Shown here: piece after piece, positions 30,467 through 56,673 of the stretch
Numbering within the stretch: the stretch's first letter is position 1
Layout: each line of letters starts with the position of its first letter
Assembly: GCA_025358205.1 (NCBI GenBank)
Contig: JANYKG010000082.1
Span: 551 to 64,550, forward strand
Direction of reading: 5' to 3'
Length of the DNA stretch: 64,000 nucleotides
Source: Armatimonadota bacterium
GTDB taxonomy: Bacteria; Armatimonadota; UBA5829; DTJY01
Notes under the pieces: model-generated
The model's input: only the letters and a program-made list of their open reading frames with translations
Told to the model about the DNA's origin: nothing
The model's database searches: none
Program-made: the position numbers and the translations under genes

Positions 30467-33373
30467 ATGGATAGAAAAAGCCGAACTTCATTCTTCACCA
30501 ATATGGTAGTATCTCGGCGTGGGCAGACACTTGTGCTTGCGCTGATTATCCTGTTCATGCTGGTATTCCTGGGCGGGCTGTTCGTGACACTTATTGCGCG
30601 GAATCTGGCCCGAACCAGGCGCAGCGGCCAGACGTTGACCGCGGAATACCTTGCAGAGACAGGTGTGCGGTATGCCAGCGATCAGCTTACGTACAGTCTG
30701 GACGGCGCGGACTGGCGTCCGGTGCCGAACTACCCGGATGTGATAAGAAATCTGAATGGCGACAACATAACCACTCCGGTAAAGCCGAACCTATCTGACC
30801 CGGACTACGATTGGCTGACGAAGGGATATTGCCGATTCACGTATGGGGACGGTAGATTTCTCATCAGAGTAACTTATGAACCCAAGTTCGGTGATCCTAT
30901 CTCCAAGTACATCAAAATCGAATCCATAGGCCGTGTGGGCGTCGTGGACGAAAACGACCCTACAACGCTGGACCTGAAGCAGCCGCTACGCCTGAGAGCG
31001 GAACGTGTGGCGTACAAGGCTATCGGCATTACGGATTACTCCAGGTTCATCACAAATCAGGACAGGCGCACGGAGGCATTTGGCTTGGGCGTTCCGGCTT
31101 ACACTCAGCCCAACGGCTTGAAGCAAGCGTTCACCACTCAGTATGGTGACGTGAGTGACTATAACGGTGACACCATACCGGAGCCGCACGGTGGGTCAAT
31201 CCGCGTGAACGGCAACCTGACTTGGTACGGCAAGAACTTCATCTGGCTGGACGCTAAGCATAACGAGGCTGTGGAAGTGGCAGGGGATATCAGTCACGCT
31301 GTGGAGTGGTCCGGCGGCGGCAATGGCCCCACGCCGGAATCCACGATGGTGTACCTGAATCCTGACCGCACTATCTCAGGCTGGCGGACGAATCTTCTCT
31401 TGCGGCAGAGTTCTGATCCGTATTTTGATACCAGCACGGATAACCCAAGTGCGTCTGTGGGCGTGTATCGAGACGGTCGGCCCGAAGGTGATGTCGGCGT
31501 TACGATTGCCGGAGTTTTGCATCGCAGACCGCGCGGCATACAAAGGCTTGATCCGCCGCTGCTCGATGTTACCGGTCCGACAGGCGGCACGGGCAGATAC
31601 CGCGAACTCACTCGCAACTCCGGCGAATGGCTGCCCCCCGCATCTACTGGAGGCACGTGGTACAACACCGGTTTCTACGGATGGGGTAAAGGCCTGTACA
31701 TCAACAACCGAGACGACCTCCAGACCGAGTCTGATCTGAAGACGCTGAGGGATGATTGGATGAACCCCGGCGAATCGCAGAACTGGGTTGGACCGTACTA
31801 CAACCCGCCTGGAATAATCATGGTGCTTACGCCATATGATCTTGACAACGATGATGGCGATAATAACCCGATGACAGGCAAGCCGGACATCATTCTGATG
31901 GAGTCGAACACGTCAGGGGCGAAGTTCAACTGGTATGACAAGAACGGTGGCATCATTACACCCGGCGCCGGGCAGATGGTGATGCCCTATCCCGAGAACG
32001 GCATCATTTTTGCGGAAGGCAATATTCGCATCAAGGGTATGCTCGCGCCGCACAAACAGCTCACCGTGGTTTCGGCGGGTACTATCTATGTGGAAGGGAA
32101 TGTTCTGAAGTGCGGGCTTAAAGACGATGGCACTCCAATGCTGCCGACCGATCCTAAGGACAGCAGCATTGCGCTTCTGGCCACCGACTACGTTGCCGTG
32201 AATGCCACTCAGTTCTTCGGACCCGCGCCGGAGAGCCAGACTCCTGGTAGCTGGCGTCCTGAAATGGGCGGGTTTGATGCGTCGGTGGACCATCCGTTGA
32301 GTTTCGACTTCGCGTTCGGCATGGACCCGTCCGCATGGTATGGAACTATGCCCGTATGCGCGTATGTGCGTCATGCGGCGGACGGCGGCTCTGCTTACAT
32401 GAATATGACGGTCAACCAATTTGGCGCAGGGGCTGATCCGGGCGATCCCACTGATCAATGGTATGGCTTCTACAAGTTCGACATGCAGCCGTGGAGTACC
32501 CTTATTCCGCCTGCTCAGCCCGCGCGGCAGTACATCTACCCCATGGCGGATATTGATGCGGCGGCGACGGTGTTTCCGGTTCCGCCAAATAGCCCGACGG
32601 ATCAATCCAACCTTGTGGCGGTGCAAACTTACCCAATATGGGAGCATCAGGTCTTCACGATATTCCCGCTGAGTAACCCGCCCAGGCCGGATCAGAACTA
32701 TGCGCTGAATATCTTCCCCGGTTCCAGCAATCAGATCGGCTTCCGGCTGGATCAGAACATAGCGAAAGCGGATTACCTGCTTTCAAGGTTCGCAGTGCAG
32801 CCTTGTGACATTCGCGTGGAGGCGATGCTGTACGCTCAGAACGGGTCTTTCTACGTGATATCGGGTGCGCCGTTCAACCCTGATCCAGGCGACAGCAGAA
32901 ATGAGTTCCTGAAGGGGAACGCTGCCGTTTCGGGGAGGCTGGCACGCATGGGCATTGATGAGCGGTGGCCTTTCTATGGTGAGCCGCTGGATGTGCGTTT
33001 GATTATCAACGGTTCGGTGAGCGAGAACGTCAGCGCGCCGATAGCGGATCAAGCAGCATGGATGTCGGCGTGGGGGTGGATTCCGCCCTCACACGGATCG
33101 AGTCCACTGCCGGCGGATGAGGTCATCGGGTACCGGTCGCCTCTCGATCCTGAGAACTCGGAGACTGTTGCGGGCACTAGTGCGTTGCCTGTTCGTCAGC
33201 GTGGGCTATCCATCATCTACGATGATATGCTTTCGTACCCGAAGGTGCCTACTGTTGCCACAGATAGAACCAAGGACGTGCAGATCAGGCGTGATCTTTA
33301 TCTGCGGCCGTTAGCCGTTACGCCAAAGCTGCCGGTGAGCAGTCAGACAATATTCTTTGGCCGTCCCACTTGA
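30467..33373 (+). CDS. PilX N-terminal-domain protein, 968 aa
   Basis: The N-terminus RRGQTLVLALIILFMLVFLGGLFVTLIARNLARTRRSGQTLTAEYLAETGVRYASDQL matches the PilX_N pattern. RBS GGGGAGAAGG. The large C-terminal region has no clear homology that I can assign. Confidence 0.7.
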   Translation: MDRKSRTSFFTNMVVSRRGQTLVLALIILFMLVFLGGLFVTLIARNLARTRRSGQTLTAEYLAETGVRYASDQLTYSLDGADWRPVPNYPDVIRNLNGDNITTPVKPNLSDPDYDWLTKGYCRFTYGDGRFLIRVTYEPKFGDPISKYIKIESIGRVGVVDENDPTTLDLKQPLRLRAERVAYKAIGITDYSRFITNQDRRTEAFGLGVPAYTQPNGLKQAFTTQYGDVSDYNGDTIPEPHGGSIRVNGNLTWYGKNFIWLDAKHNEAVEVAGDISHAVEWSGGGNGPTPESTMVYLNPDRTISGWRTNLLLRQSSDPYFDTSTDNPSASVGVYRDGRPEGDVGVTIAGVLHRRPRGIQRLDPPLLDVTGPTGGTGRYRELTRNSGEWLPPASTGGTWYNTGFYGWGKGLYINNRDDLQTESDLKTLRDDWMNPGESQNWVGPYYNPPGIIMVLTPYDLDNDDGDNNPMTGKPDIILMESNTSGAKFNWYDKNGGIITPGAGQMVMPYPENGIIFAEGNIRIKGMLAPHKQLTVVSAGTIYVEGNVLKCGLKDDGTPMLPTDPKDSSIALLATDYVAVNATQFFGPAPESQTPGSWRPEMGGFDASVDHPLSFDFAFGMDPSAWYGTMPVCAYVRHAADGGSAYMNMTVNQFGAGADPGDPTDQWYGFYKFDMQPWSTLIPPAQPARQYIYPMADIDAAATVFPVPPNSPTDQSNLVAVQTYPIWEHQVFTIFPLSNPPRPDQNYALNIFPGSSNQIGFRLDQNIAKADYLLSRFAVQPCDIRVEAMLYAQNGSFYVISGAPFNPDPGDSRNEFLKGNAAVSGRLARMGIDERWPFYGEPLDVRLIINGSVSENVSAPIADQAAWMSAWGWIPPSHGSSPLPADEVIGYRSPLDPENSETVAGTSALPVRQRGLSIIYDDMLSYPKVPTVATDRTKDVQIRRDLYLRPLAVTPKLPVSSQTIFFGRPT

Positions 33374-33417: not shown

Positions 33418-33547
33418 TGGAAGTGGAACACAGCGGGCCTCAAAGTCGTTTAACTAAGTGTGACCTTGACCTGCATTGTTCATGGAGAACGTGAATCACG
33501 CAGGTTATAGAGGAAACGCGTCCGACGCGTATTGGATGGTGAGTGAA

Positions 33548-36500
33548 ATGGCAAGACGATTCGTCAGATACACATTCGCAATAATGCTCTGTGCGGTGTT
33601 GACCACCGGGGCGCTATACGCTGCCAGCTTTACCTACTCAGACCAGGCGAAGCGGATCAAGGCCGGGGTGGTGTTGCCTTCCCTGCCTCCTCCTCCCCCT
33701 CTAGATCCTCGCATGGATCCGGCCAACCGCCCGAACCCATACGTGTTTTATATTATGGATCAGCGTCAGGACATGAAGCCTGCGGGCTGGGAGTTCTACA
33801 ATCCATACGCGTCTTCGCATGTTACCACAGACATGGCGGCCAGATGGGGCGGCATGTGCGCGGTAGGCGACGTTATTGATAAGTCCATGGGGTGTTACTG
33901 GGAGGTTCCGATCGGTGAGGTGAACCCAGACGATCTGGCGCAGTACGATGTGCTTTTTCTCAGCGGATACGGCAACATGACGTTCAACGGCCGCGAGAAG
34001 GAGAAGCTGCGGAAGTTTGTGGATAACGGCGGTGTGCTGTGGGTTGACTATCAGCAGAAGCCAGGGTATCCGGGTCTTCAGACGACGCTTGACCCGACGT
34101 TTTTCGTGCCTTCGATAGCGTTTTCAAATGGCGGCGTGGGTATGAGCGTGCGCGCGGATATCCCGAAAGCGGCAAGTGCGCATGCGCTCTTGAACAGACC
34201 TTTCCTCGTTTCAGGCATGGATGCGAATCTTCTGGGGGGTGGCGGCGGTGCGGCGCCTGGCAATGAATTCTTGAGTCTGGTTGGTGAGGCGCTGCAGACA
34301 TTCATGCCGATAGTGGCGCGCGGCGGCAACCAAGTGGTTTCGGCGGCGCAGTACGGCAGCGGGTACATTGTTGTTACCGCGGACGGCGTGGCGCAGGCGA
34401 TCACCAATCCGGTTGGCGTGGCCGGCGCGGTGTGCGGCAAGTTCTTCATTGCGGCGCAACCGGAGGATCTGAAGCTTTCGTACAACATCGTGAACTGGGG
34501 ATCGGAGTCCCCGGCTCCACGGAAGAACCCCAGACAAACGGGGGGTTCTTTTGAGGAGATAGGTATGCCCCTGGTGCCGCTGTGGAGTTATACCGCGACG
34601 ACGCCCGGCATGAGTGTGAACAGCTCACCGGTTATTCTCGATGACATGATATTCTATGTGGACGGCAACAATGTGCTGCATGCATTCGACTTGTCGCCGA
34701 TACGCGACCGTGACGGAGATGGGAATCCCGATGACGGCCTCCCTGACTACTCGACCGGATCGCCGTGTGACGAACTATGGCGGGTAAGCATTGGTGAGCC
34801 TTGCTCTTCTCCTACTGCGGCCTATGTTCCCATCGGCGGAGGGGTAGTCGGCGCGGTTCCTACCGTGTTCATTGTGACCCAATCAGGCAAAGTGACTGCC
34901 TACAACGCGCTGGATTACACCACAAGTACGGGGCCTACGCCAGTGCAGCTCTTTACTGATTCCAGCCAGGCGCTAAATCCGTTTGTCTTCCCGCCTACTG
35001 CACTTGATACGCGAATACCTGCTGCCACCTATGCTGAGGGTTCGCTCTATGTGGGCGACGGACGTGGGGTTATACACGTTCACAACTTCTTATCTACAGG
35101 CGCAGTCCCGGAATGGAGACACGTGGCCATAGCAAACAATCCGGCTGATGGCATGATTTCGAACTCGCCTACCGTCGGCTATTTTTATGACGCAACCAGC
35201 GGCGCTACCGAGTTGGTTGCCTATCTGAACGGGCGCGGGACGCCTACTCTGGGGGCGAATCCTTATACCGCAGCATATCCTTTAAGTTCGTTCAATGAGA
35301 CACTTGTCCCGGATAATCCAGCAGCTACCCCAGGTCTGTATCGCATACGTTCTGTAAATGCCTATATCGCCACGACTCCGATTGCTCCATTTGATCCGAG
35401 ATTGTACTATACCGACCCCACAACCGGCGCCTTGAATCCAATTCCTACTACCGACTATACACTGCAGAACCCAGGGAAGTTTCAGATTATCAATCCTTCC
35501 GCAACTCTGACGACCATCACCGCATTGGGCGCGTCCGTGGTTGCAGACTATTGGCTTGACTACACGAACCCAGCGGCAACAACGTCGTGGCGATCCATCC
35601 AGATCTGGGGTAACGATAACCCTCTTGACAAGTTGGGCATTACAGGCTCGGCTGCTGCAGGCAAGAACAACACTCTGTATTACGGCACCGAGAACGGCTC
35701 CATTTATGCCGTCAGGGAGACTGGTCGGGCCGGAGCGACCATTGGTGGGGGACCGCTGAGAACTCCTCTTGTGGTGAAGTGGCGCTGGTGCTTCCAGGAC
35801 CCAACTGTCAAAGCGGTAATCGGGACCAATAATGTTGAGATTGTCGGATCACCGGTAGTGGTGAACGATATGGTGTATTTCGGTGTGAATATTGGCAACC
35901 AGGGATTCCTTTTTGCGTTCCAGGCCGATCCGGCGTTTACCATCAGGCTCAATCAGCCGATAGCGCCTAATACGCAGGTGATTCTGAAGCAGATGGACTC
36001 CTTGAGACCGACGACGCCAGTTGCCGGTGTGCCAAGGAATTACGTGGCAGCATCTGACACGGACGTTGACAAGGCGGCGGGTGATACGGTTGCTCTGGTG
36101 GACTATGATACCAGCAAGATATCCGTCATCAACTTCAAAGGTGTTGGCGGCGAGTTGACGTCTTCGGCTGACCTCGTTGTGGAGTATGTCCCGGCGGCCG
36201 CGGTGGTACCCGGTCAGACGCCTATTCCGATTCAGGAACCTCATTACGCGTTCCTGCCGAACTCCGGCGACAATTGGAACAACCTGAAATGGTTCATGAG
36301 ACTGGAGGATATCTCGGTCAATCCGGTAATGAACTACAAGATAGCGTCATCCCCTACGGTGATGGGAGACGTTCTGTACATCGGTTGCCAGGACGGCACC
36401 ATGATCGCGGTGGACGTGGGCAAGGCGAACCAGGCCGCTCCCAAGCAGATGTTGGGCAATGTGCAGGAGAAGTATTTCAAGAATATCCTGACAATCACCG

Positions 36501-37858
36501 ACGGCTATGTGTGGCCCAATCAACTTGTGGCGCCAACCAATTCTAATCCGCAGATTTGGGGATCCCCGACCGGATCGCACGGCATGTTGGCCGTCGCAAC
36601 TTCCGATGGACTCAGCGTAATGTACAATCCGACCAGCCTTGTGGCAGACGGAAACCGTTTGGTGGAGATTGACGCGCAGGGCAAACCTATATGGTCGTGT
36701 GATTCCACTACCGGGTTCGCCAGCACGTTCGCGGTGGGCGCAACCGCCTCGCAGGACCAGACAGTGGTGGGGTCGGTAACCATGCCGTTCAACCGTCCGA
36801 GTGTGGCAAGGCGCGCCCCGGTAGGCGGCTTAGTGGTTGCGGATACGGGTAATAACAGAATAGTCCATATGGACAAGGGCGGCACGGCGATTTGGCAGAT
36901 CAAGGACTTTGGCGAGGAGAACCCTGCCACACCGGTGCTTCCGCCGGGGTCGCCAATGGAGTTGAACAAACCGACCGACGTGACATGCTGGATGACCACG
37001 ATGCCGGTAACGCTCGGCGCTAGTACGACGCCGGTGATGCTGCCGATCTACCACTATCTGATAGCGGATAACGGCAACAACCGGGTGCTGGAGATAGTGT
37101 GTAAGTATGACACCGCGCTGGGCCAGTACCGCAACATGGTGGTGATGGTATCCGATAACCTGGCGCAGGGTGAGCCGAGGCGGTTCCTTACCGCGCGGAT
37201 AGCCACCTATGACAATGTTACGGGGCAGATCGCCACTGTGATATGCGTGATGGCCAACGATCCCGGTAGCACGGGCGCACGGGGACTAGGCAGTTCGCTG
37301 GTTGAATTGGACTGGAAGACCGGCAAGCTTCTGAGCGTTACGAATCGTTTGCCTATAGGCGCAACGGCGGCGACCAGCTTCAAGCTGGTGAACCCTTCGT
37401 TCTTCAATAGGCAGTATGTAAGCGGCACGGAGTACGCTGATGTGACGATAGACGCTTCGGGTGTGCATGTGAATCATGTGGCTGGAGGAGTATCATCCAT
37501 CCGGCACTATCTGTTCACGGATCATTGGGATACGGACGAGACTTCGTTGATGAATAAGCTTCTAATTCAGGTTCCTGGAATGCCCGTTGGCACAACTGCC
37601 CCGCATGCCAGACCGTTCGCGCCGAGTTACGCGCAGTACATGCCGAACGGGCATGTGCTGGTGACGAACAAGGCGACCGGCATTGCATATGATAAGACTA
37701 AGACGCAGAGGGCGTTTACCGGTGAGGTATTTGAGATCGAACCGGAGGATGTAACAGTAGACCCGACCAAGACAAAGTTCAAGAGAACCCCTGGCTCCAG
37801 CATATGGTACACGGCGGGGTTCCATCAGCCCTTGAGCGCTGAACGATTGTTGTACTAG
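33548..37858 (+). CDS. giant secreted beta-propeller protein (~1436 aa) with PQQ/NHL-like repeats; PilY1-like candidate
   Basis: ATG 33548 has a GGTGAG RBS. The signal peptide is MARRFVRYTFAIMLCAVLTTGALYAAS. Repeated propeller blade motifs occur (NVLHAFDL, GKVTAYNAL, GSIYAV, GTMIAVDV), and the C-terminus has NHL-like blades (ADTGNNRIVHMD, ADNGNNRVLEIV). The track start at 33476 is an upstream extension. Confidence 0.7.
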   Translation: MARRFVRYTFAIMLCAVLTTGALYAASFTYSDQAKRIKAGVVLPSLPPPPPLDPRMDPANRPNPYVFYIMDQRQDMKPAGWEFYNPYASSHVTTDMAARWGGMCAVGDVIDKSMGCYWEVPIGEVNPDDLAQYDVLFLSGYGNMTFNGREKEKLRKFVDNGGVLWVDYQQKPGYPGLQTTLDPTFFVPSIAFSNGGVGMSVRADIPKAASAHALLNRPFLVSGMDANLLGGGGGAAPGNEFLSLVGEALQTFMPIVARGGNQVVSAAQYGSGYIVVTADGVAQAITNPVGVAGAVCGKFFIAAQPEDLKLSYNIVNWGSESPAPRKNPRQTGGSFEEIGMPLVPLWSYTATTPGMSVNSSPVILDDMIFYVDGNNVLHAFDLSPIRDRDGDGNPDDGLPDYSTGSPCDELWRVSIGEPCSSPTAAYVPIGGGVVGAVPTVFIVTQSGKVTAYNALDYTTSTGPTPVQLFTDSSQALNPFVFPPTALDTRIPAATYAEGSLYVGDGRGVIHVHNFLSTGAVPEWRHVAIANNPADGMISNSPTVGYFYDATSGATELVAYLNGRGTPTLGANPYTAAYPLSSFNETLVPDNPAATPGLYRIRSVNAYIATTPIAPFDPRLYYTDPTTGALNPIPTTDYTLQNPGKFQIINPSATLTTITALGASVVADYWLDYTNPAATTSWRSIQIWGNDNPLDKLGITGSAAAGKNNTLYYGTENGSIYAVRETGRAGATIGGGPLRTPLVVKWRWCFQDPTVKAVIGTNNVEIVGSPVVVNDMVYFGVNIGNQGFLFAFQADPAFTIRLNQPIAPNTQVILKQMDSLRPTTPVAGVPRNYVAASDTDVDKAAGDTVALVDYDTSKISVINFKGVGGELTSSADLVVEYVPAAAVVPGQTPIPIQEPHYAFLPNSGDNWNNLKWFMRLEDISVNPVMNYKIASSPTVMGDVLYIGCQDGTMIAVDVGKANQAAPKQMLGNVQEKYFKNILTITDGYVWPNQLVAPTNSNPQIWGSPTGSHGMLAVATSDGLSVMYNPTSLVADGNRLVEIDAQGKPIWSCDSTTGFASTFAVGATASQDQTVVGSVTMPFNRPSVARRAPVGGLVVADTGNNRIVHMDKGGTAIWQIKDFGEENPATPVLPPGSPMELNKPTDVTCWMTTMPVTLGASTTPVMLPIYHYLIADNGNNRVLEIVCKYDTALGQYRNMVVMVSDNLAQGEPRRFLTARIATYDNVTGQIATVICVMANDPGSTGARGLGSSLVELDWKTGKLLSVTNRLPIGATAATSFKLVNPSFFNRQYVSGTEYADVTIDASGVHVNHVAGGVSSIRHYLFTDHWDTDETSLMNKLLIQVPGMPVGTTAPHARPFAPSYAQYMPNGHVLVTNKATGIAYDKTKTQRAFTGEVFEIEPEDVTVDPTKTKFKRTPGSSIWYTAGFHQPLSAERLLY

Positions 37859-37996
37859 CAGGGAGTTTGTAGTCGCCCCTTTTATGGGTGCGCAGTTACC
37901 GCGCAGGCATGAAGCTTGCGGCTACAAGCAAGGATCAGGGATAGCTTTGACCGATCCTCGTTCAGTTGTTGGACGAGGTGGGAGGTGCAGTACATT

Positions 37997-40900
37997 ATGA
38001 AAACCAGAATTGCGGCATGCGCTTTGCTTGCGCTGTTGATATGTGCGCTGGGATCATCGGCCTTGGGTCAAGATCAGTGGCCGATGTTACGGCACGACAA
38101 CGCGAGAACCGGCTTAGCGGTTGGCGGAGCGCTCAGTACGTTTCGTCCCGCACCCACGTGGGTGTTCCCTGCTCCTGAGACTAGCACGTATACGGTAGAT
38201 AATGGAGACGCTGCCTTCTCGAAGACCGGCACGTGGAATGACACGCCTCTCAACGGGGTCGCCCCCTATCTGGTGGAGGGAGCAGTTCCGTATCTTTGGA
38301 CACCGACAGGCGCAAGTGCAACCGCTACTGCGGAGTGGACGTTCACCTTCAACGGTGGGGCATACACTATGCGTGGTACGAGCGCGAAGTTCATGGTGTT
38401 TGTGTGGGTACCTTCTCCCGGCGCTGGCGAAACACCGCAGCACTGCGAGGACGCTCATTACACCGTGGAACTGACCAATGGCGCCACCGGCGTTACTACT
38501 ACGATAGGTCACTACACGCTGGATCAGACCAGCGGGGGCGGCTGGCAGAACTTGCCGAACTCCCCGTCACTTCTGGTTCAGAAGACTGATACGGTGGTGG
38601 TCAAGCTGTCCAACGTGACGGAGCGGAAGGACGACACGGGCAACCTTGTAGTGAGCCAGGTTCTGGCGGATGCGGTGATGCTGAAGACCGATACCGGCAT
38701 GGTGTTTGCTTCACCGGCAGCCTCGACAACACTTCCGCTGGTGATTAGTGCGAGCACTGAATTCGCGAGTGTCGCCAGGGGTGGAAATTTTGGCAACGCA
38801 AACATTGGCGCGGTGTACGGGATAGGCGCGGAGGTTAACTCCGGGATTGTTGCATCCGCTGTGGATGACCGCGGCATGATGAAATGGCGTTATCCGGCGG
38901 GAAACAACGACTGGATAGCAGGCGGGATATCTTCCTCACCGACCCTTACCACTGCTCTTGGTAGTGAGAAAGTGGTGGCGGCAGGGGTGGATGGACAGGT
39001 GTATGTGCTGGACGCGGATACCGGCGCCCATGTGTGGAACGGCCCGGGATATTTTGATGAAAACATGACACTAAGCGGCTCGTGGAATCCCTATACCGGC
39101 GCAGGTGTTCGGGGCGCTGACAGTCAGACGGCCCAGTCGGTAAAGGTTCCGGCGGCTGCTACGGCAACAGCAACCTGGACGTTCAGTCCGATAACTCCAG
39201 GGACTTATGATGCCTATGCGTGGATTCCGCCTTCAGGGAGCGAAATGTTTGTGCAGGATGCGCGGTACACGGATCTGAAATCCACCGATCCGACAGCAAA
39301 GGCGAAAGTGTATCAGGGCGGCGGTGGGTTCTGGGCGCTGGTTTGCAAAGGGTTCAAGTCTACGGGAAATACCACCATCAAGCTCACGAACGAAACCGAG
39401 GGCGATGCAAGCAATCTGGTGGTTGCGGACGAAATGAAGCTTGTGCCCGCGGACGTCCAGTCATTTGACTTCTCATCGCCCGTGGTGGATGGCAGTGGGT
39501 ATATCTACATAGGCAGTGCAGGCAGCGCGGGCAGAGTGCTCAAGCTGAAATCAGGCCAGTCGGACCCGGTGTGGACATACCCGTCCACGAGTGATGCGCC
39601 CATTGGCTCGATACATGCATCACCGGCGATAGGGCCGGACGGCACAATATACGTTGGTTCCGCGGACGGACATATATACGCCATCAACCCGGATGGTACG
39701 CCGAAGTGGGTGTATCCCAATCCGAGCGGAACCCCTGCTGCTCTGCCGGAGATTTCTTCAACTACGGCTGTGACCGACTTGTCAGGCAAGACTTACGTAT
39801 ACTTCTCGACCGGCGCAGCGTCGAGTGGCGGCTCGTCCGGTGATGAAGGCAAAGTCTACGCAATTCAGGATAATGGGCAGGACGCGGTGGCCTTGCAGTG
39901 GACGTATCCGTCCAGCGGCCAACTTGGCGCGTTTGTGTATTCGTCTCCGTTGATTATGGAGTTGGCGTCTGGTAACGGCAAGCCGCAGGTAGTGGCAGGC
40001 TCTACAAACGGCACGCTTTACACCGTTGACGGCGCTAGCGGCATAGACAATCAGGTCCCGCAGCGCATGTCGGTGGCGCTGAATGGGCTGATCAATTCCA
40101 GCCCTGCCGGTACATATGTGACTTTTCCAACCTATGCCGACCGGAATGTCGTTACGTTGCCGCTCCCGGTCCGTACCACGGCTGCACCGATGGCTTTTGT
40201 CGGCTCAGGTTCTCGTATTTATGGTGTTGATCTGACGCTTCCGCTTGCCGCACCCGCGACTTGGGTGCCAAAGGACTGGTGGTGGGACTTGCTGGGTAAC
40301 GTGATTTCGTCCCCGGCTGTTACCAAGAACCGAATCTACGCAGGTGATACGGCGGGATATACCTGGGCGTTTTCCACCGGCTTGGCCGGCGGTGGCGGAC
40401 AGGAGGGCTGGAATACGGAACTAGGCCCTATGCCGGAGACCAGCGGTTCGGACCACACCGCAGGCGGGCGTGATGCGAAGCCCGAAGTGGATGTGTTCGT
40501 GAAGAGCGATTGGGATGTTTTCCGCAGGGACTACCTGGAACCGGCGGAGCATAGCGACGGAAACGGTACGTCGAAGGATTGGTTCAGAAGCAGCGAGATT
40601 AGAAAGCACGCTCGCGATCATGGCGCCACACGCCCGGGTACATATCAGATGGAATGGGGCGAGGATATGGTTATCGTTGTCTGGAACCTCATTGACCCGA
40701 ACCGTTCCAACCCCAACGCTCCCAATACGTGGAAGAGGCGATTTGATAGTTCCGATGGTACTAGTCATCCGGCCCCGGGCTGGACGCATGATTATCGCGG
40801 TCGGGTGGAGATCAGTATCAAGGGCCATGCTCCGGGTGCGGCGAGCGCCTCTGAAGAGAAGATCACCCTCTCCGACAGGCAGATAGACAATTTCACGGAT

Positions 40901-43900
40901 ATGGACGATGATCCGGATTCGGTGATTGATGCCCCGGGGACGACCGGAGGCAAGAACGGCTATTCATGCTTCTATGCGGTATGCGAGTATACGCTGGATG
41001 GTTCATCTTCCGGCAAAGCGCAGACTCCGGGGTCCATGTTCAATATCACGGCGAGAGAGATACCCAATTCGCCCAACGCCAGCAGCTTGGACATCCCCGT
41101 GCCGCACGCTCTGACCGGCGCAACTCCTGATCTGAATCCGGCCCAGGAGTTCGCGATCAACAATCCGATAGGCGTGCTGACGTACAATGCGCCGTACACC
41201 AGCGTCGCCCAGAGCTCGCCTGTTGACTCGATCGGCATGGATCCTGCTAACCGACTGACGACGAAGCGCGATCTGGCCGATGCGATGGTGAACGGTAACT
41301 TGGTTGCGCCTCCGGTAATTTGGGGTGGATACACGCCTCATAATAGGCTTTCGGAAACCCGGACGATCGCCATCGCGGACCGGAGTCTGCTGTCTGTGAG
41401 CGGGCGCAGAATCAGCAAGTTCCGGGCGGAACGTCATGATATGAGATGGACGGGCGCTATCCCGCAGGTTATTAACGAGCTGCCGTGGGAGCGCAATCCG
41501 TCCAATACTGCTGCGAATATGCCAAACTCCAGTGAGGATTACCCGGACATTGACCTGCGGCAGATTAAAGTGCGCCTGCTTTCCAACGGGACTGATCCGT
41601 CCCAGAGCGCTGTGGACCTTCGTAAAGGGATAACGACCGCTTTTCCCGCAGCCGGAGCCCCTTGGAATATGGTTGATCCGGTCGGCTTGTCCGCCCTGAA
41701 CCCGGTGAGCTTTGCGGTGCAAGTTCCACAGTTCCAGCCGCCGAACCTGCCGTGGTCGGGTAACCCATCAGGAACACGGGCTGACACCGGCTATACCAGC
41801 TATGTTTATGCATATATAGACTCCAACAACAACGGCATGATGGACAGGCCCGCAGGGCTTGGCATCGGGCAGCTCATAAGTTCCGCGGTTACAGGCACCA
41901 GGGCGGAGGCGTTCCGCATGCTTGAGGTGCAGGTACATGTGCCCGCGGACTACAGGGCGCAGATAGAAAATCAGCGCGTGAACATAGGCGAGGTGCCACA
42001 GGGGTTTGGCTACACGGCGAAAAGCGGTGTTCCATGGGTGTTTGCGCCGAATCTGGTGCCTGATCCGATGTATGGCGTGCTTGCGCCAGCCGGATTTGGC
42101 GAGTGGTTCAAGCCGCTGACCATCCGCAACACAGGCAATGTGAACCTTGTGAATGTTGGAATGCTGAGAACGGACATGGTGAGCGACACGGTTCAGCAGC
42201 CGGTCATAGATGGTACCGGTGCGGTGATTCCCGGCTCCGGATTCTATATTCCAGCACAATCTCCCTCTGCCAATCCATGCCTGGTTTCTACGGTTGATGA
42301 CAGCGGTTACCTGAATGGTGCAGGGTTTATGACCAGTGTACCCCCGGCGATGCTCTCAGCGTTAAGACCGCCATCACGGACGTTCCACAAGGCGAGGGTA
42401 GGGGAGTCTGCCCCGGAATTGAGACTGCCGGACTATACGTCTTGGGCGCCTGCGATTCCGCAGGTTCCGCAGGTTCCCGCGATAAGCGTGGCGGTGCCGT
42501 TGGGAACGCCCACGGGCACGTACTACGGGAAGGTTCAGCTTTCCGAAAAAGGTAATGCCGTCAGCAATCCGGTGGACGTGGTGGTTACGTGCAATGAGTC
42601 ACGGATTACGGGCGGCAACACGCTCCCTGTGCCGAATCTGACGCATCTGGACAATCCAAGTACGCCGGGAATGACCGGCGTGAGCGGCACCCCTGCGGCC
42701 TTCCGAAACCCGGCAACCGGAAACGTGCTGTTCTTCTGGTCAAGCTCCAGGTATCCGGATGTCACGATAAACAGCACGGCGCAACCGACCAGCTCTGATC
42801 CGGCATACCTGTACTTCAGCAAGCTTGAAGCGCAGACCAATGGTGAGTTCGGGCTATCAACGGCTGCTCCGGCCCAGTGGTGGGCGCCGACGACGACGAC
42901 ATCGGTGTTTCCGAAACCATCGAGAATCAATGATTTCTTCCCATCGGCGACAACTGCGGACCCGACCTGGGGTGCGGTTGGGAACATCATACCGGGCAGT
43001 GTGAAGTTCGGCAGCCCCACGGTGGCGGTGGATAAGGTCAACAAGAAGTCATACCTGCTCTTTACGGGGCAGGCCGGCAAGACGGACCCGAGATACAAAA
43101 CGGAAGCGAACTACACGACCGGCGCTCGAAATACCCAGGAGTTCCGCGCGTACTACACGGAGATCAACGGCGAAACGGTTGACGAGGGCAATGTGTACTC
43201 CACATCGCCGAACAATACTACGGAGCAGATTCACGGCGACTGGGCGACACCGAAGTTCGGTGTGCGCGGCGGTATAATGATTCGCGCCGCAGGAGACACC
43301 CCGGAGCTTTGGAACTTCTGGTACGGCGGCAGTAGCGGCAAGTGGCGGATATACTACAACGTCAAAGCGAACCCGTCCACGCCTCCCAGCCCTACCAATC
43401 AATGGACGAACGAAGCGCTTTTGCCGATACCCAAGGGGTTGAGTTCAGTGTCAGAGCCGTCGCCGGTGTTCCATTACTTCATAGATAAGACGACAGGCGA
43501 GTTCACCGAGACCGGCAACGAGTTCATGGTTACGTATTCCGGCATGTCCGTGTTCCACAAGAACAGCGATATCTACATGAGTAGATACATATCGCAGATG
43601 CCCACGACGGGCATCAGACAGGGAAATTCCAAGCCTGTTGACCTGGCGCTGATGCCTCAGCGTGCGAACCTGATACCAGAGGTGAATGACCCGGCGACCT
43701 CCGGGACGCCTCTGCTGGGTGAGAAGTTGACGCGTGATCCGGCTACCAGCGTGTGGTACTCCAAAGATGTTGACTGGCTGGCTGATGATGTCAGTGGTGT
43801 GGTGACCGTTGCAAACCCAAGAGATTTCGCGGTCTTTGTAAGACTTGATCCGACGGACCCGGCATCGGTCTATCAGCTTAACGTGGGCCAGACGGACCGC

Positions 43901-44794
43901 GACGCGTCAACCGGGGCGATAGTCTACAACTACGGTGGAGGAACGGCGGTTGAGAACACGCTGAGGACCCTATTCCGCGCGGTAGTGATCAACCCTGCAG
44001 ACGGCACGGTAAAGTTCATGAAAGCGCCGAACGGTAAGGCTCTTGTGGTTGCGAGGTATTTCCCCAAGGCGTACCGGCTGACTACGGACGGCGTGGCTGA
44101 CTCTAACCCTTGCGCGGTGATGGACGACGACGTGAATCCCAGGTATAGCAGCACGAATACCACCAATCTGCCGTTCTTTATGCCGAATGGCAGTCCCGAG
44201 CCGGTGCCTACGGATCGCCTATGGGTGTTCTGGCGCAGACCGGCGATGGATAAGACCGGCACCGGCATATACTACAAGGCGCAACGTTACATGGTGCAGC
44301 TCAACTCTCAGATGGGGCTGGACGTGAAGGCGTCGGGAGCCTTCACACCGTCGGTGGCATCAGTGATGGGTGTGGATCCAGTTTCTGGTACGAGCGCTAC
44401 TCTGAAGTTTCCGGTGGAGATAGACTGGGTGAAGAACAGACTGTATTTCGCTAGCGCGGATGGCAGGGACAAGATTCTGCACGGCACGGACGCGAACGGC
44501 AACAATGTGTATATTTCGTATCCTAAGCATGTGAAAGTAACTTATACTGATTCCAAGCAGAATGTTGTGACCGATGAAGACCACTACGTCCAATATGCCG
44601 ACGAGGATATCAGTCAGGCCGGCAAGACGTTTGGCAACCTTACGAGTCTGATGGTGAACGAAGGCCAGGTGAATGCGTTCAAGGACCCGTTCTCAAATAG
44701 ACTGTGGGTTTTCTGGACCAGCACCCGGTCCGGCAATTCCGATGTGTACTATGAGACTATAAGTCCCAGAATCATCGGCAAAGAATATAGATAA
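37997..44794 (+). CDS. giant secreted PQQ-like beta-propeller / beta-sandwich-module protein (2265 aa)
   Basis: ATG 37997 has GGAGG 11 nt upstream. The signal peptide is MKTRIAACALLALLICALGSSALGQ. PQQ-like blades occur (GQVYVLDADTGAHVWN, GHIYAINPDGTPKWVY, GTLYTVDGASG). A ~150-aa module (TWTF...LVVADxMKL) is duplicated near the N-terminus. Confidence 0.75.
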   Translation: MKTRIAACALLALLICALGSSALGQDQWPMLRHDNARTGLAVGGALSTFRPAPTWVFPAPETSTYTVDNGDAAFSKTGTWNDTPLNGVAPYLVEGAVPYLWTPTGASATATAEWTFTFNGGAYTMRGTSAKFMVFVWVPSPGAGETPQHCEDAHYTVELTNGATGVTTTIGHYTLDQTSGGGWQNLPNSPSLLVQKTDTVVVKLSNVTERKDDTGNLVVSQVLADAVMLKTDTGMVFASPAASTTLPLVISASTEFASVARGGNFGNANIGAVYGIGAEVNSGIVASAVDDRGMMKWRYPAGNNDWIAGGISSSPTLTTALGSEKVVAAGVDGQVYVLDADTGAHVWNGPGYFDENMTLSGSWNPYTGAGVRGADSQTAQSVKVPAAATATATWTFSPITPGTYDAYAWIPPSGSEMFVQDARYTDLKSTDPTAKAKVYQGGGGFWALVCKGFKSTGNTTIKLTNETEGDASNLVVADEMKLVPADVQSFDFSSPVVDGSGYIYIGSAGSAGRVLKLKSGQSDPVWTYPSTSDAPIGSIHASPAIGPDGTIYVGSADGHIYAINPDGTPKWVYPNPSGTPAALPEISSTTAVTDLSGKTYVYFSTGAASSGGSSGDEGKVYAIQDNGQDAVALQWTYPSSGQLGAFVYSSPLIMELASGNGKPQVVAGSTNGTLYTVDGASGIDNQVPQRMSVALNGLINSSPAGTYVTFPTYADRNVVTLPLPVRTTAAPMAFVGSGSRIYGVDLTLPLAAPATWVPKDWWWDLLGNVISSPAVTKNRIYAGDTAGYTWAFSTGLAGGGGQEGWNTELGPMPETSGSDHTAGGRDAKPEVDVFVKSDWDVFRRDYLEPAEHSDGNGTSKDWFRSSEIRKHARDHGATRPGTYQMEWGEDMVIVVWNLIDPNRSNPNAPNTWKRRFDSSDGTSHPAPGWTHDYRGRVEISIKGHAPGAASASEEKITLSDRQIDNFTDMDDDPDSVIDAPGTTGGKNGYSCFYAVCEYTLDGSSSGKAQTPGSMFNITAREIPNSPNASSLDIPVPHALTGATPDLNPAQEFAINNPIGVLTYNAPYTSVAQSSPVDSIGMDPANRLTTKRDLADAMVNGNLVAPPVIWGGYTPHNRLSETRTIAIADRSLLSVSGRRISKFRAERHDMRWTGAIPQVINELPWERNPSNTAANMPNSSEDYPDIDLRQIKVRLLSNGTDPSQSAVDLRKGITTAFPAAGAPWNMVDPVGLSALNPVSFAVQVPQFQPPNLPWSGNPSGTRADTGYTSYVYAYIDSNNNGMMDRPAGLGIGQLISSAVTGTRAEAFRMLEVQVHVPADYRAQIENQRVNIGEVPQGFGYTAKSGVPWVFAPNLVPDPMYGVLAPAGFGEWFKPLTIRNTGNVNLVNVGMLRTDMVSDTVQQPVIDGTGAVIPGSGFYIPAQSPSANPCLVSTVDDSGYLNGAGFMTSVPPAMLSALRPPSRTFHKARVGESAPELRLPDYTSWAPAIPQVPQVPAISVAVPLGTPTGTYYGKVQLSEKGNAVSNPVDVVVTCNESRITGGNTLPVPNLTHLDNPSTPGMTGVSGTPAAFRNPATGNVLFFWSSSRYPDVTINSTAQPTSSDPAYLYFSKLEAQTNGEFGLSTAAPAQWWAPTTTTSVFPKPSRINDFFPSATTADPTWGAVGNIIPGSVKFGSPTVAVDKVNKKSYLLFTGQAGKTDPRYKTEANYTTGARNTQEFRAYYTEINGETVDEGNVYSTSPNNTTEQIHGDWATPKFGVRGGIMIRAAGDTPELWNFWYGGSSGKWRIYYNVKANPSTPPSPTNQWTNEALLPIPKGLSSVSEPSPVFHYFIDKTTGEFTETGNEFMVTYSGMSVFHKNSDIYMSRYISQMPTTGIRQGNSKPVDLALMPQRANLIPEVNDPATSGTPLLGEKLTRDPATSVWYSKDVDWLADDVSGVVTVANPRDFAVFVRLDPTDPASVYQLNVGQTDRDASTGAIVYNYGGGTAVENTLRTLFRAVVINPADGTVKFMKAPNGKALVVARYFPKAYRLTTDGVADSNPCAVMDDDVNPRYSSTNTTNLPFFMPNGSPEPVPTDRLWVFWRRPAMDKTGTGIYYKAQRYMVQLNSQMGLDVKASGAFTPSVASVMGVDPVSGTSATLKFPVEIDWVKNRLYFASADGRDKILHGTDANGNNVYISYPKHVKVTYTDSKQNVVTDEDHYVQYADEDISQAGKTFGNLTSLMVNEGQVNAFKDPFSNRLWVFWTSTRSGNSDVYYETISPRIIGKEYR

Positions 44795-51269: not shown

Positions 51270-51477
51270 CTATACGCAATTGAATAATGTCTGCCGTAGA
51301 CCGCAGGTGTTCACGGACTTAAGGGGTGAAGACCCGCCTGCCGAGGCTTGGAGCCGTTCTCGATATATTATGTCGAGTGCGTTTTTCTTGAAGCAAGGGG
51401 ATCCCCGGTGTCTACGGTGATCCCTTTATTATTTTATGGGGTGGGGTATATACCCACCGACCGAGGAGGTGAAATAC
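51270..51477 (+). promoter_or_regulatory. rplJ (L10) leader region with hairpins and a U-tract attenuator-like element
   Basis: About 200-nt untranslated leader. It contains CTCGATATATTATGTCGAG followed by TGCGTTTTTTC and a GGGATCCCCGGTGTCTACGGTGATCCC hairpin. This is consistent with an L10(L12)4 autoregulatory leader by analogy, which is an inference. Confidence 0.45.
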
Positions 51478-51999
51478 TTGCCGAAACAAGAGAAGATTGA
51501 CCGAGTTGCCCAGTTGGGTGAACAGGTCAAACAGTCCAGTGCGCTTGTAATGACCGATTACCGCGGATTAACGGTGAAAGAGATATCCGAAATCCGAAGG
51601 AACCTGCGGGCGACTGGGGCGCAGTATACGGTTGTAAAGAACACTCTCTTCCATTTGGCCACCAAGGACGTGATGGAGGAAAGCATATCTGAACTGCTTG
51701 CCGGGCCGACCGCTGTGGCATTCGTGGAGAGTGACGCAATAGGTGCAGCGAAGGCTTTGGTGGATTTCGCCAAGACGCACAAGGCTCTGGAAATCAAGGG
51801 CGCGTACATGGAGGGCAAGGTCCTGGATACAACCCAGGTAGTGGCCCTGTCCAAGATTCCGTCGCGCGAGGTTCTGATATCGCAGATGCTGGGTGCATTC
51901 CAGTCACCGATAGCAGGCTTTGTGGGTACGCTTCAGGGTGTAGTGTCCCAGTTTGTGTTCACGCTTCAGGCAGTTGCCGATCAGAAGTCGGCTGCGTGA
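51478..51999 (+). CDS. rplJ: 50S ribosomal protein L10
   Basis: TTG start with GGAGG 8 nt upstream. The L10 N-terminus LPKQEKIDRVAQLGEQVKQSSALVMTDYRGLTV is canonical. Confidence 0.9.
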   Translation: MPKQEKIDRVAQLGEQVKQSSALVMTDYRGLTVKEISEIRRNLRATGAQYTVVKNTLFHLATKDVMEESISELLAGPTAVAFVESDAIGAAKALVDFAKTHKALEIKGAYMEGKVLDTTQVVALSKIPSREVLISQMLGAFQSPIAGFVGTLQGVVSQFVFTLQAVADQKSAA

Positions 52000-52062: not shown

Positions 52063-52440
52063 ATGGCAAAGATAGATGAAATCATCGCATCAGTAGACAG
52101 TTTGACAGTGCTTGAACTCAGCGAGTTGGTGAAAGCTCTTCAGGAGAAGTACGGCGTGTCGGCAGCAGCTCCCGTGGCCGCAGCAGGTCCCGCAGGAGGC
52201 GGCGAGGCAGCAGCGGTAGAGGAAGAGAAGACTTCCTTCGACGTAATCCTGAATGGCGCCGGCGACAAGAAGATCAACGTGATCAAGGTTGTCCGTGAAC
52301 TGACCAGCCTTGGCCTGAAAGAAGCGAAGGACCTTGTGGAGTCCGCTCCTCAGCCGATCAAGACCGGTCTGAACAAGGAAGATGCCGAAGCTACAAAGGC
52401 GAAGTTGGAAGCCGAGGGCGCGAGCGTCGAGATCAAGTAG
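52063..52440 (+). CDS. rplL: 50S ribosomal protein L7/L12
   Basis: 125-aa ORF with canonical L7/L12 N- and C-terminal domains. Confidence 0.95.
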
Positions 52441-52608: not shown

Positions 52609-55600
52609 ATGAAACAACTTCAGCATTCGTTCAGTCGTACCCCAGCTGCTCTTGCTGAGGTACCTGTACCGAATCTCATTGAACTTCAGCGCGATTCTTA
52701 TGAATGGTTTCTGCGCGAAGGACTCCGCGAACTTTTCGCAAGCTTCTCGCCCATTTATGATTTCACGGGAAGCATATCCCTGGAACTGCTAGATTATACG
52801 CTCGGCGAACCCAAGTACAGCATTGAGGAATGCCGAGACCGGGACATGACCTACGAAGCTCCGATCAAGGCAAAGGTGCGCTTGGCTGAGACGGGCAAAG
52901 AAGTCATGGAGTCCGAAGTTTATCTGGGCGACCTTCCTCTAATGACGGAGAAGGGTACGTTCGTCATCAACGGCGCCGAGCGCGTGGTTGTCAGCCAGTT
53001 GGCGCGTTCTCCAGGCGTCTATTTCAAGGATACCCTTGACTTCAGCGGGCGAGTATTGTACTTCGCCACTGTTATCCCGAGTGAAGGAGCATGGGTAGAC
53101 ATCGAGACAGACCCGAACGATGTTATGACCGTACGTATCGGGCAGACCAAGAAATTCCCGGTCACCACCCTGCTAAGAGCGCTCAACTATTTTGACGCAG
53201 CATGTCCTACATCGCAGATGGTCTTTCCGGCTGATGCGGAGGGTCGCGTGCTGGCCGCCGACGTTGTGGATCTGAAGACCGGCGAGATCATCGCCGAGAC
53301 CGACGCAACGGTGGATGCCAAGCTGATGAAGAAGCTTGAGAAGGCGACACTTTCGAATGAAGGCATCAAAGTCGTCAACCCATCCACCCCTTCGGATAGC
53401 ACAGCGGAACTGGTAGACCTGTTCGGCGAGAGGGAGACCATCGAGGATCTTTCCAAGGAGTCGCTCATAGGTCTCAGGGTGGCTGAGGATCTGCTGGACC
53501 CCAAGACGAAGAAGGTTGTACTCAAGGCCTACGGACGCATTGAGAAGGATACGGCGAAGAAGATCGAGGGCTTTGGGCTTTCGAAACTGGACGTTATCAG
53601 AGTTAATGATCTGGTAGAAGCCACGCTGGGTCAGGACCCGGCGCACGGCAAGGAAGACGCGATCCTGGATATTTACAGGAAGATCAGGCCCGGCGATCCG
53701 GCTACACTGGAGAGCGCAAAGAGCCTGCTGTATTCCATATTCTACGACGTGCGGCGTTATGACCTGGCGAAGGTCGGCCGTCACAAGTTGAACAAGAAAC
53801 TGGGTCTTCGGTTGCCGCTGAGCATGCGCAACGTAACAAAGGAAGACCTGATAAGCATAGTCAGATACATAATGGTGCTGAGTGACGGCGGCGGTTCCAC
53901 TGATGATATTGACCATCTTGAGAACAAGAGAGTCAGGTCAGTCGGCGAACTGCTGCAGAGCCAGTTGCGCATGGGTTTCCTTCGCATGGAGAAGGTTGCC
54001 AAGGAGCGCATGACCAGCCTTGAGGCGGAGAACGTCATTCCGCAGGTGGTGCTCTCAGTCAAGCCGATATCCGCCAGCATCAAGAGCTTTTTCGGCAGCA
54101 GCCAGTTGTCTCAGTTTATGGACCAGACGAATCCGCTTGCGGAACTTGCCCATAAGAGACGACTCAGCGCGCTTGGTCCCGGTGGTTTGAGCAGGCAGAG
54201 CGCCAAGCTGGAAGTGCGTGACGTTCACCACTCCCACTATGGCAAGATATGTCCCATCGAGACGCCTGAAGGCCCGAACATCGGACTGATCGGTTCGTTG
54301 GCTATTCACGGCAAGGTGGATGAATTCGGGTTTATCAAGACACCGTATCGGCGAGTAGTGAACGGTAAGGTTACCGGTCAGATTGACTATCTCATCGCCG
54401 ACGATGAAGACAAACATCTCATTGCCCCCGCGAATATCCCTGTGGATGCGGAAGGCAAGATTGATGTGCCGCTGCTAACCGTGCGTCAGGGCAACAACTA
54501 TCCGCAGGTTCAGCCCAAGATGGTTGACTACATGGACGTTTCGCCCATGCAGGTCTTCAGCGTGGCGGCAGCCCTTGTTCCCTTCCTGGAGAACGACGAT
54601 GCGAACCGCGCACTCATGGGTTCCAACATGCAGAGGCAGTCGGTTCCGTTGTTGAGAAGCAAAGCTCCGGTCGTGAAGACCGGGATGGAGGGCAAGGCGG
54701 CTCGGGACTCCGGTGCGGTAGTCATCGCAAAGCGTGACGGACGTGTGAAGCGCGTCACGGCGGAGCAGATATCCATCGAATCGCGTGAAGGCGGCATTGA
54801 TGAGTACGCGCTTCTGAACATGCTGCGATCTAACCAGGCTACCTGCATTACACAGAAGCCCATCGTGAAGCCGGGCCAGCGTGTGAGGGCAGGGGACGTG
54901 ATCGCCGACGGTCCGTGTACCGAGGGCGGTGAGCTTGCATTAGGGCAGAACATACTGGTGGCGTTCGTAGCATGGAACGGATACAACTACGAAGACGCTA
55001 TTCTGTGCAGCTCTCGACTGGTTCAGGAGGATATCTTCACCTCGATTCACATCGAGAAGTACGAAGTTGAGGCGCGCGACACCAAGCTCGGCCCTGAGGA
55101 GATCACTCGCGACATTCCGAATGTCGGCGAGGACATGCTGAAAGACCTTGATGAGAACGGGATCATCCGAATCGGCGCGGACGTGACGCCTGAGGACATT
55201 CTGGTCGGTAAGGTTGCGCCCAAGGGTCAAGGCGAGCTGACGGCTGAAGAGAGACTGATTATCGCGATCTTCGGCAAGAAGGCCGAAGAGACACGGGATG
55301 TATCGCTGAGAGTGCCGCACGGTGAGAAGGGGAAGATTGTAGATACACGCGTCTTCTCACGGTTCAAGTACAAGTGCAGCCGGTGCGAGACGATCTTCAA
55401 CTTCAGCAAGCGGCCTGACCGCACGATCTGCGACAGGTGCGACGGCGAACTGGAACGACTGCCGGGCGATGAGCTGATGGCAGGCGTGAACCAGCTTGTT
55501 CGCGTGTACGTTGCCCAGAAGCGGAAGATCATGGAAGGCGACAAACTGGCAGGACGCCATGGAAACAAGGGTGTTATCTCAAGGATAGTGCCTAAGGAAG

Positions 55601-56673
55601 ACATGCCGTGTCTGGCTGACGGGACACCGGTAGACATGGTGTTGAACCCGCTTGGTGTGCCTTCGCGAATGAATATCGGACAGATACTCGAAACCCATCT
55701 TGGGTTGGTGGCGGGAAGAATGGGCGGCAGCTATGAGAACCCGATCTTCCAGGGCGCGAAGGAGCCCGAGATACTGGTGGAGCTGGACAAAATGGCGCGC
55801 AAGATGCGCTCAGATGTCATCAACGACTTCCTTCGCACTGAAGTGAAACTGGATATTGTCTTTACCCCAAATAATAACGAGGAAGAGATGAAGGCCGGGA
55901 TCGCTGAAGGGCTGCTGACTCTATCGGCTAAGGGATTAGAGGACGTGGCGCGCATTGCACAAATGGATGAGACCATGGAACTTGAGGCCTACGAAGAGGA
56001 ATGTGCGCGCATCACCGAGGCTGAAGAGAACGAGGAAACATACAAGCCCAAGACCGCGAAAGCGAAAAAGGCTGTACTAAAGGCTATGGCCGACAGGATC
56101 GTGGAAATGGCCTGGACCAGAACCGGTATCGAAAATGCGACCGGTAAGTTGTATCTGACAAACGGTCAGACGGGCGAGAAGTTCGATCAGCCGGTTACAG
56201 TCGGAAACATGTACATGCTGAAACTGATACACCTTGTTGACGACAAGATTCATGCTCGGTCAACGGGACCATACTCTCTGGTTACTCAGCAGCCATTGGG
56301 CGGCAAAGCTCAGTTCGGCGGACAGCGATTCGGGGAGATGGAAGTCTGGGCGCTTGAGGCCTATGGAGCGGCATACACGCTTCAGGAAATCCTCACCATC
56401 AAGTCAGATGACGTGGTGGGCCGTGTTAAGACATACGAGTCAATCGTGAAGGGCGACAGCATGCTCGAACCGGGCATACCTGAATCCTTCAAGATACTCA
56501 TCAACGAACTCCAGAGCCTTGGTCTGAAGGTAACCGTAGAGGACGATAGGGATCGAGAGATTGACCTGACGGACAGAGAAGACGAGGGATCTGATGGCGG
56601 CCCGGGGCATGCGATGATGCGAAAGAGCAGAGCGCTTGAACCGATGGCTGGTATGCGGGAGGATGCGATATGA
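52609..56673 (+). CDS. rpoB: DNA-directed RNA polymerase subunit beta, with lineage-specific insertions including a CxxC-X17-CxxC motif
   Basis: RBS GGAGGAGGG. Conserved beta-subunit blocks are present throughout. Cys codons at 55375, 55384, 55429 and 55438 form the motif [22 protein letters not shown]. Confidence 0.97.

Follow-up and report, generated by a model that had tools for sequence, protein, structure and literature searches.

A zinc-ribbon-like Cys4 insertion at the base of the beta flap in the RNA polymerase of Armatimonadota

In the textbook view, the zinc of bacterial RNA polymerase (RNAP) is carried by the beta-prime subunit. A cluster of four cysteines in the other large subunit, beta, therefore raises the question of what such a module is, where it came from and whether it is likely to bind a metal. 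This question is posed by the rpoB gene of an Armatimonadota bacterium, contained in a 64,000-nucleotide stretch of contig JANYKG010000082.1 (assembly GCA_025358205.1, positions 551 to 64,550, forward strand), referred to here as the window. An earlier note on this DNA, made from the letters alone, had drawn attention to a zinc-ribbon-like cysteine motif in the encoded beta subunit (RpoB), at the site where Escherichia coli beta carries the insertion known as SI2 or beta-i9. The analysis identified a 32-residue insertion with four cysteines (Cys4), found in all of the Armatimonadota-type RpoBs collected and predicted to fold as a small zinc ribbon.

The position of the insertion was established by alignment with RNAP beta chains of solved structure. 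With phmmer, the alignment to every solved bacterial beta chain broke at residue 918 of the query, and query residue 919 aligned with residue 937 of E. coli beta. When residues 868-1240 were used for the search, the residues flanking the gap were adjacent or nearly so in the chains of B. subtilis, C. thermocellum, S. aureus and M. tuberculosis (e.g., 909/910). Since the solved chains continue with little or no gap while the query skips 919-950, the 32 residues from F919 to R950 have no counterpart in them. The insertion point falls between the shared regions b13 and b14, where the flap has its base. Beta-i9 itself comprises residues 938-1042 of E. coli beta and stands in place of six residues of Thermus beta (PMC2939025), and the placement at the SI2/beta-i9 site was thereby confirmed. 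In Firmicutes, Actinobacteria, Cyanobacteria and Thermus, a few linker residues are found at the same place, and none of the solved bacterial beta chains carries a comparable module there.

The peptide quoted in the earlier note was exact, as judged from the translation of window positions 55300-55520, and both the insert and its site stood. Two details were corrected: the coordinates given for the insert, 55360-55455, were one codon off (Table 1), and the proposed CxxC-x17-CxxC spacing was wrong, the cysteines being residues 923, 926, 941 and 944, which gives CxxC-x14-CxxC. The beta-prime subunit encoded downstream retains both of its canonical zinc sites (C60/62/75/78 and C929/1003/1010/1013 in the rpoC translation), so the Cys4 insert would be a third site, on beta and in one phylum. 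RpoB has no Rpb2-type C-terminal zinc ribbon, with no cysteine beyond position 1132 of its 1354 residues.

Table 1. Features of rpoB and of the surrounding part of the window (positions counted from the first letter of the window).
Feature	Position	Strand	Basis or remark
Cys4 zinc-ribbon-like insertion, 32 aa, F919-R950, base of the beta flap (beta-i9/SI2 site)	55363..55458	+	alignment gap, sequence, AlphaFold2 (AF2)
Knuckle 1, C923-S-R-C926	55375..55386	+	sequence; Cys frequency 0.89 at both columns (217 distinct inserts)
Loop between the two knuckles, S933-K-R-P-D-R938, consensus [SG]-K-x-P-[DE]-R, contact-surface candidate	55405..55422	+	conservation
Knuckle 2, C941-D-R-C944, followed by conserved G946	55429..55440	+	Cys frequencies 0.93 and 0.89; G946 0.90
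rpoB, RNA polymerase beta subunit, 1354 aa	52609..56673	+	open reading frame (ORF), translation, all six RpoB Pfam domains
116-aa second insertion specific to the clade (residues 1062-1177), Thermus beta-i12 site	55792..56139	+	alignment, translation, AF2
rpoC, beta-prime subunit, 1446 aa	56670..61010	+	both canonical zinc sites intact
L10_leader (Rfam RF00557)	51276-51439	+	47.7 bits, gathering score 44
rplJ	51436-51999		
rplL	52063-52440		
968-aa ORF	30467-33373		zero Pfam matches
1460-aa ORF	33476-37858	+	weak Pfam matches
2292-aa ORF	37916-44794	+	weak Pfam matches

The distribution of the insert was followed with full-length RpoB queries, since a 79-residue fragment searched against a set of 5.8 billion proteins had returned short fragments only. 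In a scan of one genome per species, the closest relatives of the window RpoB (56-62% identity) were metagenome-assembled genomes (MAGs) of Armatimonadota and Fimbriimonadales, and an insert of the same length was present at all of the loci from these groups. The Firmicute and Spirochaete loci were without it, and Proteobacteria carried the long helical beta-i9 at this place. The full-length search produced 120 homologues, all of them with the insert; those bearing a name were all Armatimonadota, including the cultured Capsulimonas corticalis. Deeper carriers were found with a 73-residue region and HMMER among 1.84 billion cluster representatives, a scan that detects homologous inserts only, so that an unrelated Cys4 insert at the same site in another phylum would escape it. 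These carriers could be named through their cluster mates as Ca. Fervidibacterota, Abditibacteriaceae and candidate division KD3-62. The most divergent of them, P0192, used as a query, led to 93 further RpoBs, about 50% identical to that of the window. The insert was read in 73 of the 93 by a first regular expression, and all 93 were captured by the subsequent alignment. Named members of this set were Armatimonadota or Armatimonadia, and the nearest named relatives of the deepest carriers (P0188 and P0192) were likewise Armatimonadota.

The resulting collection comprised 254 insert-bearing RpoBs with 217 distinct insert sequences and an overall identity down to approximately 50%. Every collected carrier with a taxon name belonged to the Armatimonadota in the broad sense, and the length of the insert was 31-36 residues throughout, the Abditibacteria excepted. 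In a neighbour-joining tree of RpoB, built from gap-free columns only and with the insert excluded, the carriers formed a single clade next to the Firmicutes. From these sequences we conclude that the insert arose once, in the ancestor of the Armatimonadota in the broad sense.

All four cysteines were present in 226 of the 254 insert-bearing sequences (89%). The losses were nearly all-or-none and concentrated in few lineages. In 20 Capsulimonadaceae-type sequences, including that of the cultured C. corticalis, the four positions were occupied by D, a deletion, S and W (with D in one sequence). The five Fimbriimonadaceae had S, I, C and T, a single cysteine thus being left in the genomes sampled from this family, among them MAGs assigned to Fimbriimonas. 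Three cysteines were lost in the two Abditibacteria, one of which has about 16 extra residues, and one sequence, P0241, had the state CCCD. The Fimbriimonadaceae have a CCCC sequence (L011) as their close sister, so that the cysteines must have been lost independently at least three times. The possibility that the cysteines are not conserved among close relatives, which the earlier note had named as fatal to its proposal, was therefore realized only in part: most carriers keep the motif, and three lineages have dropped it.

The module outlasted its cysteines, as both its length and its sequence were retained in the Capsulimonadaceae-type and Fimbriimonadaceae forms. Mean pairwise identity reached 0.71 in the insert, as compared with 0.82 in the universal core next to it and 0.27 in a second insert of the same protein described below; within the Cys-less group the corresponding values were 0.81 for the insert and 0.92 for the core. 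Since the identity of the insert is near that of the core, in the Cys-less group too, the module is under selection, and independently of the metal ligands. Among the 217 distinct inserts, the entropies of the cysteine columns were 0.38-0.74 bits, and L948, with 0.69 bits, was conserved to the same degree; between the flanking strands, no other column of the insert had so low an entropy. Other well-conserved positions were K920, Y921, K934 (frequency 0.88), G946 and R950. In the 120 close homologues, S933, K934 and P936 were invariant or nearly so, Cys-less forms included. Loss of cysteines with retention of the module is the usual pattern of a structural zinc site. The fact that the ligands were lost in three lineages while the module was kept suggests that the metal would be structural and replaceable, and does not speak for a chance motif.

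The fold was predicted with AF2 in two runs. Modelling of residues 700-1240 gave predicted local distance difference test (pLDDT) values of 86/69/89 along the insert, with strands at 919-923, 929-932 and 947-951, and the same three strands were obtained (pLDDT 82-87) when residues 908-966 were modelled separately. The value of 69 corresponds to the [SG]-K-x-P-[DE]-R loop, as expected of an exposed loop. In the larger model, the conserved core, taken out of its context, came out poorly (mean pLDDT 61), and Foldseek with this 541-residue model returned RNAP beta chains only, at a root-mean-square deviation of about 18 A, which is uninformative on either insert. The predicted topology is that of a two-knuckle, three-strand zinc ribbon with the knuckles at the turns.

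The isolated insert was also compared with known families. Its top Pfam match was Zn_ribbon_8 (PF09723; E 1.7e-4, 22.0 bits against a gathering score of 34.4), which covered positions 4-40 of the 41 in the profile, followed by ADK_lid (PF05191; E 4.7e-4, 20.4 bits against 26.6) and Zn_ribbon_SprT (PF17283; E 1e-3, 19.5 bits against 28.1). The last family was matched again within a full-length relative, P0285, and its scores were 19.5-20.9 bits. The top of the Foldseek list against the PDB (best E 0.09, probability 0.95-0.98) consisted almost entirely of Cys4 modules within larger proteins, such as the lid of Bacillus adenylate kinase, Sir2, MCM, PolD and Nob1. These sub-threshold likenesses, together with the two CxxC knuckles and the three predicted strands, agree with the zinc-ribbon-like character first proposed for the motif. 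Rubredoxin, which was considered as well, was absent among the 14 Pfam matches at E <= 10, and the insert is only 32 residues long. The search of cluster representatives also returned P0195 (E = 3.8e-5), a 392-residue, low-complexity and eukaryote-looking protein in which a sequence similar to the ribbon with its C-terminal flank, 'YRCKRCKSIYNG...CDGEIERVYEDEL', occurs as two repeats. Its cysteine spacing is different, and the likeness is probably a chance similarity.

The closest comparison by position is beta-i9 ('dispensable region II'), which occupies the same b13/b14 site in the nomenclature of Lane and Darst (Opalka et al., 2010, PMC2939025). Both are surface-exposed, lineage-specific additions to a universally conserved domain. 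However, beta-i9 is an acidic, Cys-free, two-helix 'hook-and-ladder' of 105-143 residues found in Proteobacteria, Bacteroidetes, Chlamydiae and others (PMC2939025), whereas the Cys4 insert has 32 residues, is predicted to be all-beta, is mildly basic and was found only in Armatimonadota in the broad sense. The list of beta-i9-carrying phyla lacks Armatimonadota (PMC2939025). In our alignment the proteobacterial inserts shared no similar columns with the Cys4 insert. As the two have no sequence or fold in common, they represent independent insertions at one hot spot.

By structure, the best analogue is the Cys4 lid of Gram-positive adenylate kinases, which provided the best Foldseek matches (among them 4qbi, 1zin and 5g3y; probability 0.95-0.98, no E below 0.09) as well as the second-best Pfam match. 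It too is a small knuckle module set into a larger enzyme, and adenylate kinase lids, like several ribosomal proteins, keep one fold whether they occur in a Cys4 or a Cys-less form. By contrast, its host is unrelated, its role is to close over substrates, for which the RpoB insert suggests no parallel, and the sequence homology is not significant. The Zn_ribbon_8 (FmdB-type) and Zn_ribbon_SprT families share the CxxC-x(n)-CxxC arrangement and the length of the insert, but they are free-standing or terminal domains and not RpoB inserts. Other Cys4 zinc modules of multisubunit RNA polymerases are found in a different subunit or position. One of them, the zinc-binding domain (ZBD) of beta-prime, is close to the flap and the RNA exit channel. 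An origin by duplication of this domain was considered and found to be unsupported, as the match was limited to 12 residues around the 'CDRC' of the second knuckle (17.7 bits).

Taken as a whole, the best explanation, and one that we regard as probable, is a structural zinc-ribbon insert that is specific to this lineage, has a single origin and would serve a contact role on the surface. That the module is a structural metal-binding ribbon seems very likely. In such a ribbon, the knuckles C923/C926 and C941/C944 would hold one structural metal ion, most likely Zn2+, which would staple the three-stranded antiparallel sheet and so stabilize a domain too small for a hydrophobic core. This would explain why the ligands are the best-conserved residues where they are present, and why they were lost jointly where the fold had been otherwise solved, for instance with Trp at 944. 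The insert would have been kept under strong purifying selection since its origin in the ancestor of the Armatimonadota in the broad sense, with the ligands replaced in several lineages (e.g., by D/-/S/W in Capsulimonadaceae) and the module preserved. The selected function would most likely reside on the surface formed by K920/Y921, the inter-knuckle loop, G946, L948 and R950, and a role in catalysis is unlikely. The strong conservation of these surface positions in both Cys4 and Cys-less forms suggests a contact surface, which would pack against another part of the enzyme or bind a factor. A specific protein-contact function, taken on its own, is nevertheless somewhat doubtful. More speculative, and rather improbable, is the idea that the ribbon, located on the flap beside the RNA exit channel, would be a third, beta-borne metal site at which a transcription factor specific to Armatimonadota docks (the earlier note had suggested docking of a lineage-specific regulator), or else a brace tuning flap movement, with the Cys4 and Cys-less variants differing in their response to zinc supply or oxidation.

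Several observations weigh against this explanation. The insert falls below the gathering threshold of all the Pfam zinc families matched and is a member of none, and Foldseek gave no significant match in the PDB; the metal site itself is putative. The conserved surface residues could merely be requirements of the fold. Beta-i9 has been proposed as an interaction determinant, yet its partner is not known and its deletion in E. coli has mild effects only (PMC2939025), so that no general functional importance is known for this surface. Additionally, the CCCC sequence L011 nests among the Cys-poor Fimbriimonadaceae (L002-L009 and L020) in the neighbour-joining tree, which means either that there were several losses within the Fimbriimonadaceae or that the tree is wrong at this point.

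The mildness of that deletion, which is nearly silent in vitro (PMC2939025), could also be read in favour of a neutral passenger, which a permissive loop tolerates and which persists by descent without any function of its own. The b13/b14 loop does accept large unrelated insertions. This reading is unlikely, however, given that the length of the Cys4 insert is fixed outside the Abditibacteria, that its identity is close to that of the universal core and far above that of the second insert, and that it persists among RpoBs whose overall identity is only about 50%. A different role would be that of a nucleic-acid-binding ribbon touching upstream DNA or the emerging transcript near the flap, with effects on pausing, termination or the binding of promoters. 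Nucleic acid is indeed bound by many zinc ribbons of transcription proteins, as in TFIIB, TFIIS and the beta-prime ZBD; the flap lines the RNA exit channel; and the mean net charge of the CCCC inserts is mildly basic (+2.5), on a protein whose net charge is -34. On the other hand, the insert joins the flap at its base, a site distal to the flap tip, its charge is low and declines to about +0.4 where the cysteines are missing, and the module would be near neutral if four thiolates bound Zn2+. The position at the flap base and the modest charge make a nucleic-acid role less likely, and we consider it quite improbable.

A regulatory switch, in which the four cysteines would bind zinc or (rubredoxin-like) iron reversibly, or become oxidized under stress and alter the flap, appears very unlikely. 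Cys4 sites can be redox switches, as in Hsp33 and RsrA, and the CxxC...CxxCxG pattern is compatible with rubredoxin-type knuckles. Nevertheless, three lineages dropped the ligands while the module remained equally constrained, which is the expectation for a structural and not a sensory site. No rubredoxin family appeared among the Pfam matches mentioned above, and the insert is shorter than rubredoxin, which has about 50 residues with CxxCG...CPxCG, and seems to lack its aromatic core pattern. Finally, the reading that the cysteines fell into this arrangement by chance, or that the assembly is at fault, had no supporting point and is refuted. From the cysteine frequency of RpoB, about 1.5e-4 such motifs are expected per protein, the motif is kept in 226 independent sequences, and the identical RpoB is present in another NCBI assembly, GCA_043723985.1, which is an independent public record.

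RpoB of the window carries a further insertion downstream of the ribbon. The earlier note had estimated it at about 110 residues; it proved to be real, and its extent is given in Table 1. It stands in place of about five residues of the solved Firmicute chains and appears to correspond to the beta-i12 loop of Thermus, to judge from the published survey (PMC2939025) and a reading of the E. coli sequence. In the AF2 model of residues 700-1240 it is all-helical, with five helices and a pLDDT of about 95. This second insert accompanied the ribbon in every member of the clade checked, with a length of 91-189 residues.

In one relative, the 1505-residue Armatimonadota-type RpoB P0285, two tandem helix-hairpin-helix domains resembling the C-terminal domain (CTD) of the alpha subunit were observed at residues ~1170-1300 (Pfam RNA_pol_A_CTD, PF03118, E = 3.1e-22), nested in the variable middle of the second insert. 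Alpha-CTD modules on beta are unusual and suggest that the second insert is a platform for added interaction domains. The insert of the window itself was considered as a divergent alpha-CTD/helix-hairpin-helix domain, and this was rejected, since the copies in P0285 are nested additions and the window insert has no Pfam match. Variation was also seen elsewhere in the protein. An insert in the lobe region (RpoB residues ~195-345 in the relatives) measured 94-225 residues within the clade, and total RpoB length ranged from 1244 to 1782 residues. This wide variation in lobe insert and total length indicates that RpoB of Armatimonadota is unusually plastic at several insertion sites.

The surroundings of rpoB in the window are conventional, with the usual rplJ-rplL-rpoB-rpoC arrangement. 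Directly 5' of rplJ and rplL lies an L10_leader, as expected for an L10-L12 operon with its autoregulatory leader. The stop codon of rpoB overlaps the start codon of rpoC in an ATGA (56670-56673), which suggests that translation of the two largest subunits may be coupled. In beta-prime, about 240 residues (~135-375) lie between the 'YFASYIV' and 'KSNWMIL' motifs, an interval that we take to be about 100 residues long in E. coli beta-prime; the stretch contains an alanine/glutamate-rich low-complexity run and a very acidic segment. Further upstream, two giant adjacent ORFs had weak matches alone, to beta-propeller/PQQ_2, DUF4159 and Golvesin_C, and they are preceded by the 968-residue ORF of Table 1.

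As to whether such a motif is already familiar from a well-studied phylum, the insert is confined to the Armatimonadota in the broad sense. At the time of the Lane and Darst survey of 2010, reportedly, no Armatimonadetes genome was available. In the full-text literature searched, no zinc module in bacterial beta and no insert in Armatimonadota RpoB was found described, although a mention in Lane and Darst (2010) or Iyer and Aravind (2012) is possible. A survey of RNAP insertional domains from 2024 assigned Armatimonadetes to 'type 4*', left out insertions of fewer than 50 residues and never mentioned zinc (PMC11515920). The insert was probably overlooked because it is small. What is new is the pairing of a lineage-specific insert at a known hot spot with a fold that is common in itself but had not been reported from this site.

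Until a function or a partner can be assigned to it, the insert is of modest practical significance. It shows that unrelated modules have independently colonized the b13/b14 loop of the flap base. The naturally occurring Cys4 and Cys-less variants represent a ready-made control for whether the metal matters. Moreover, the insert is a clean molecular marker for the Armatimonadota in the broad sense, a group that here takes in the Abditibacteria, the Fervidibacteria and KD3-62-type lineages, the placement of which has been debated.

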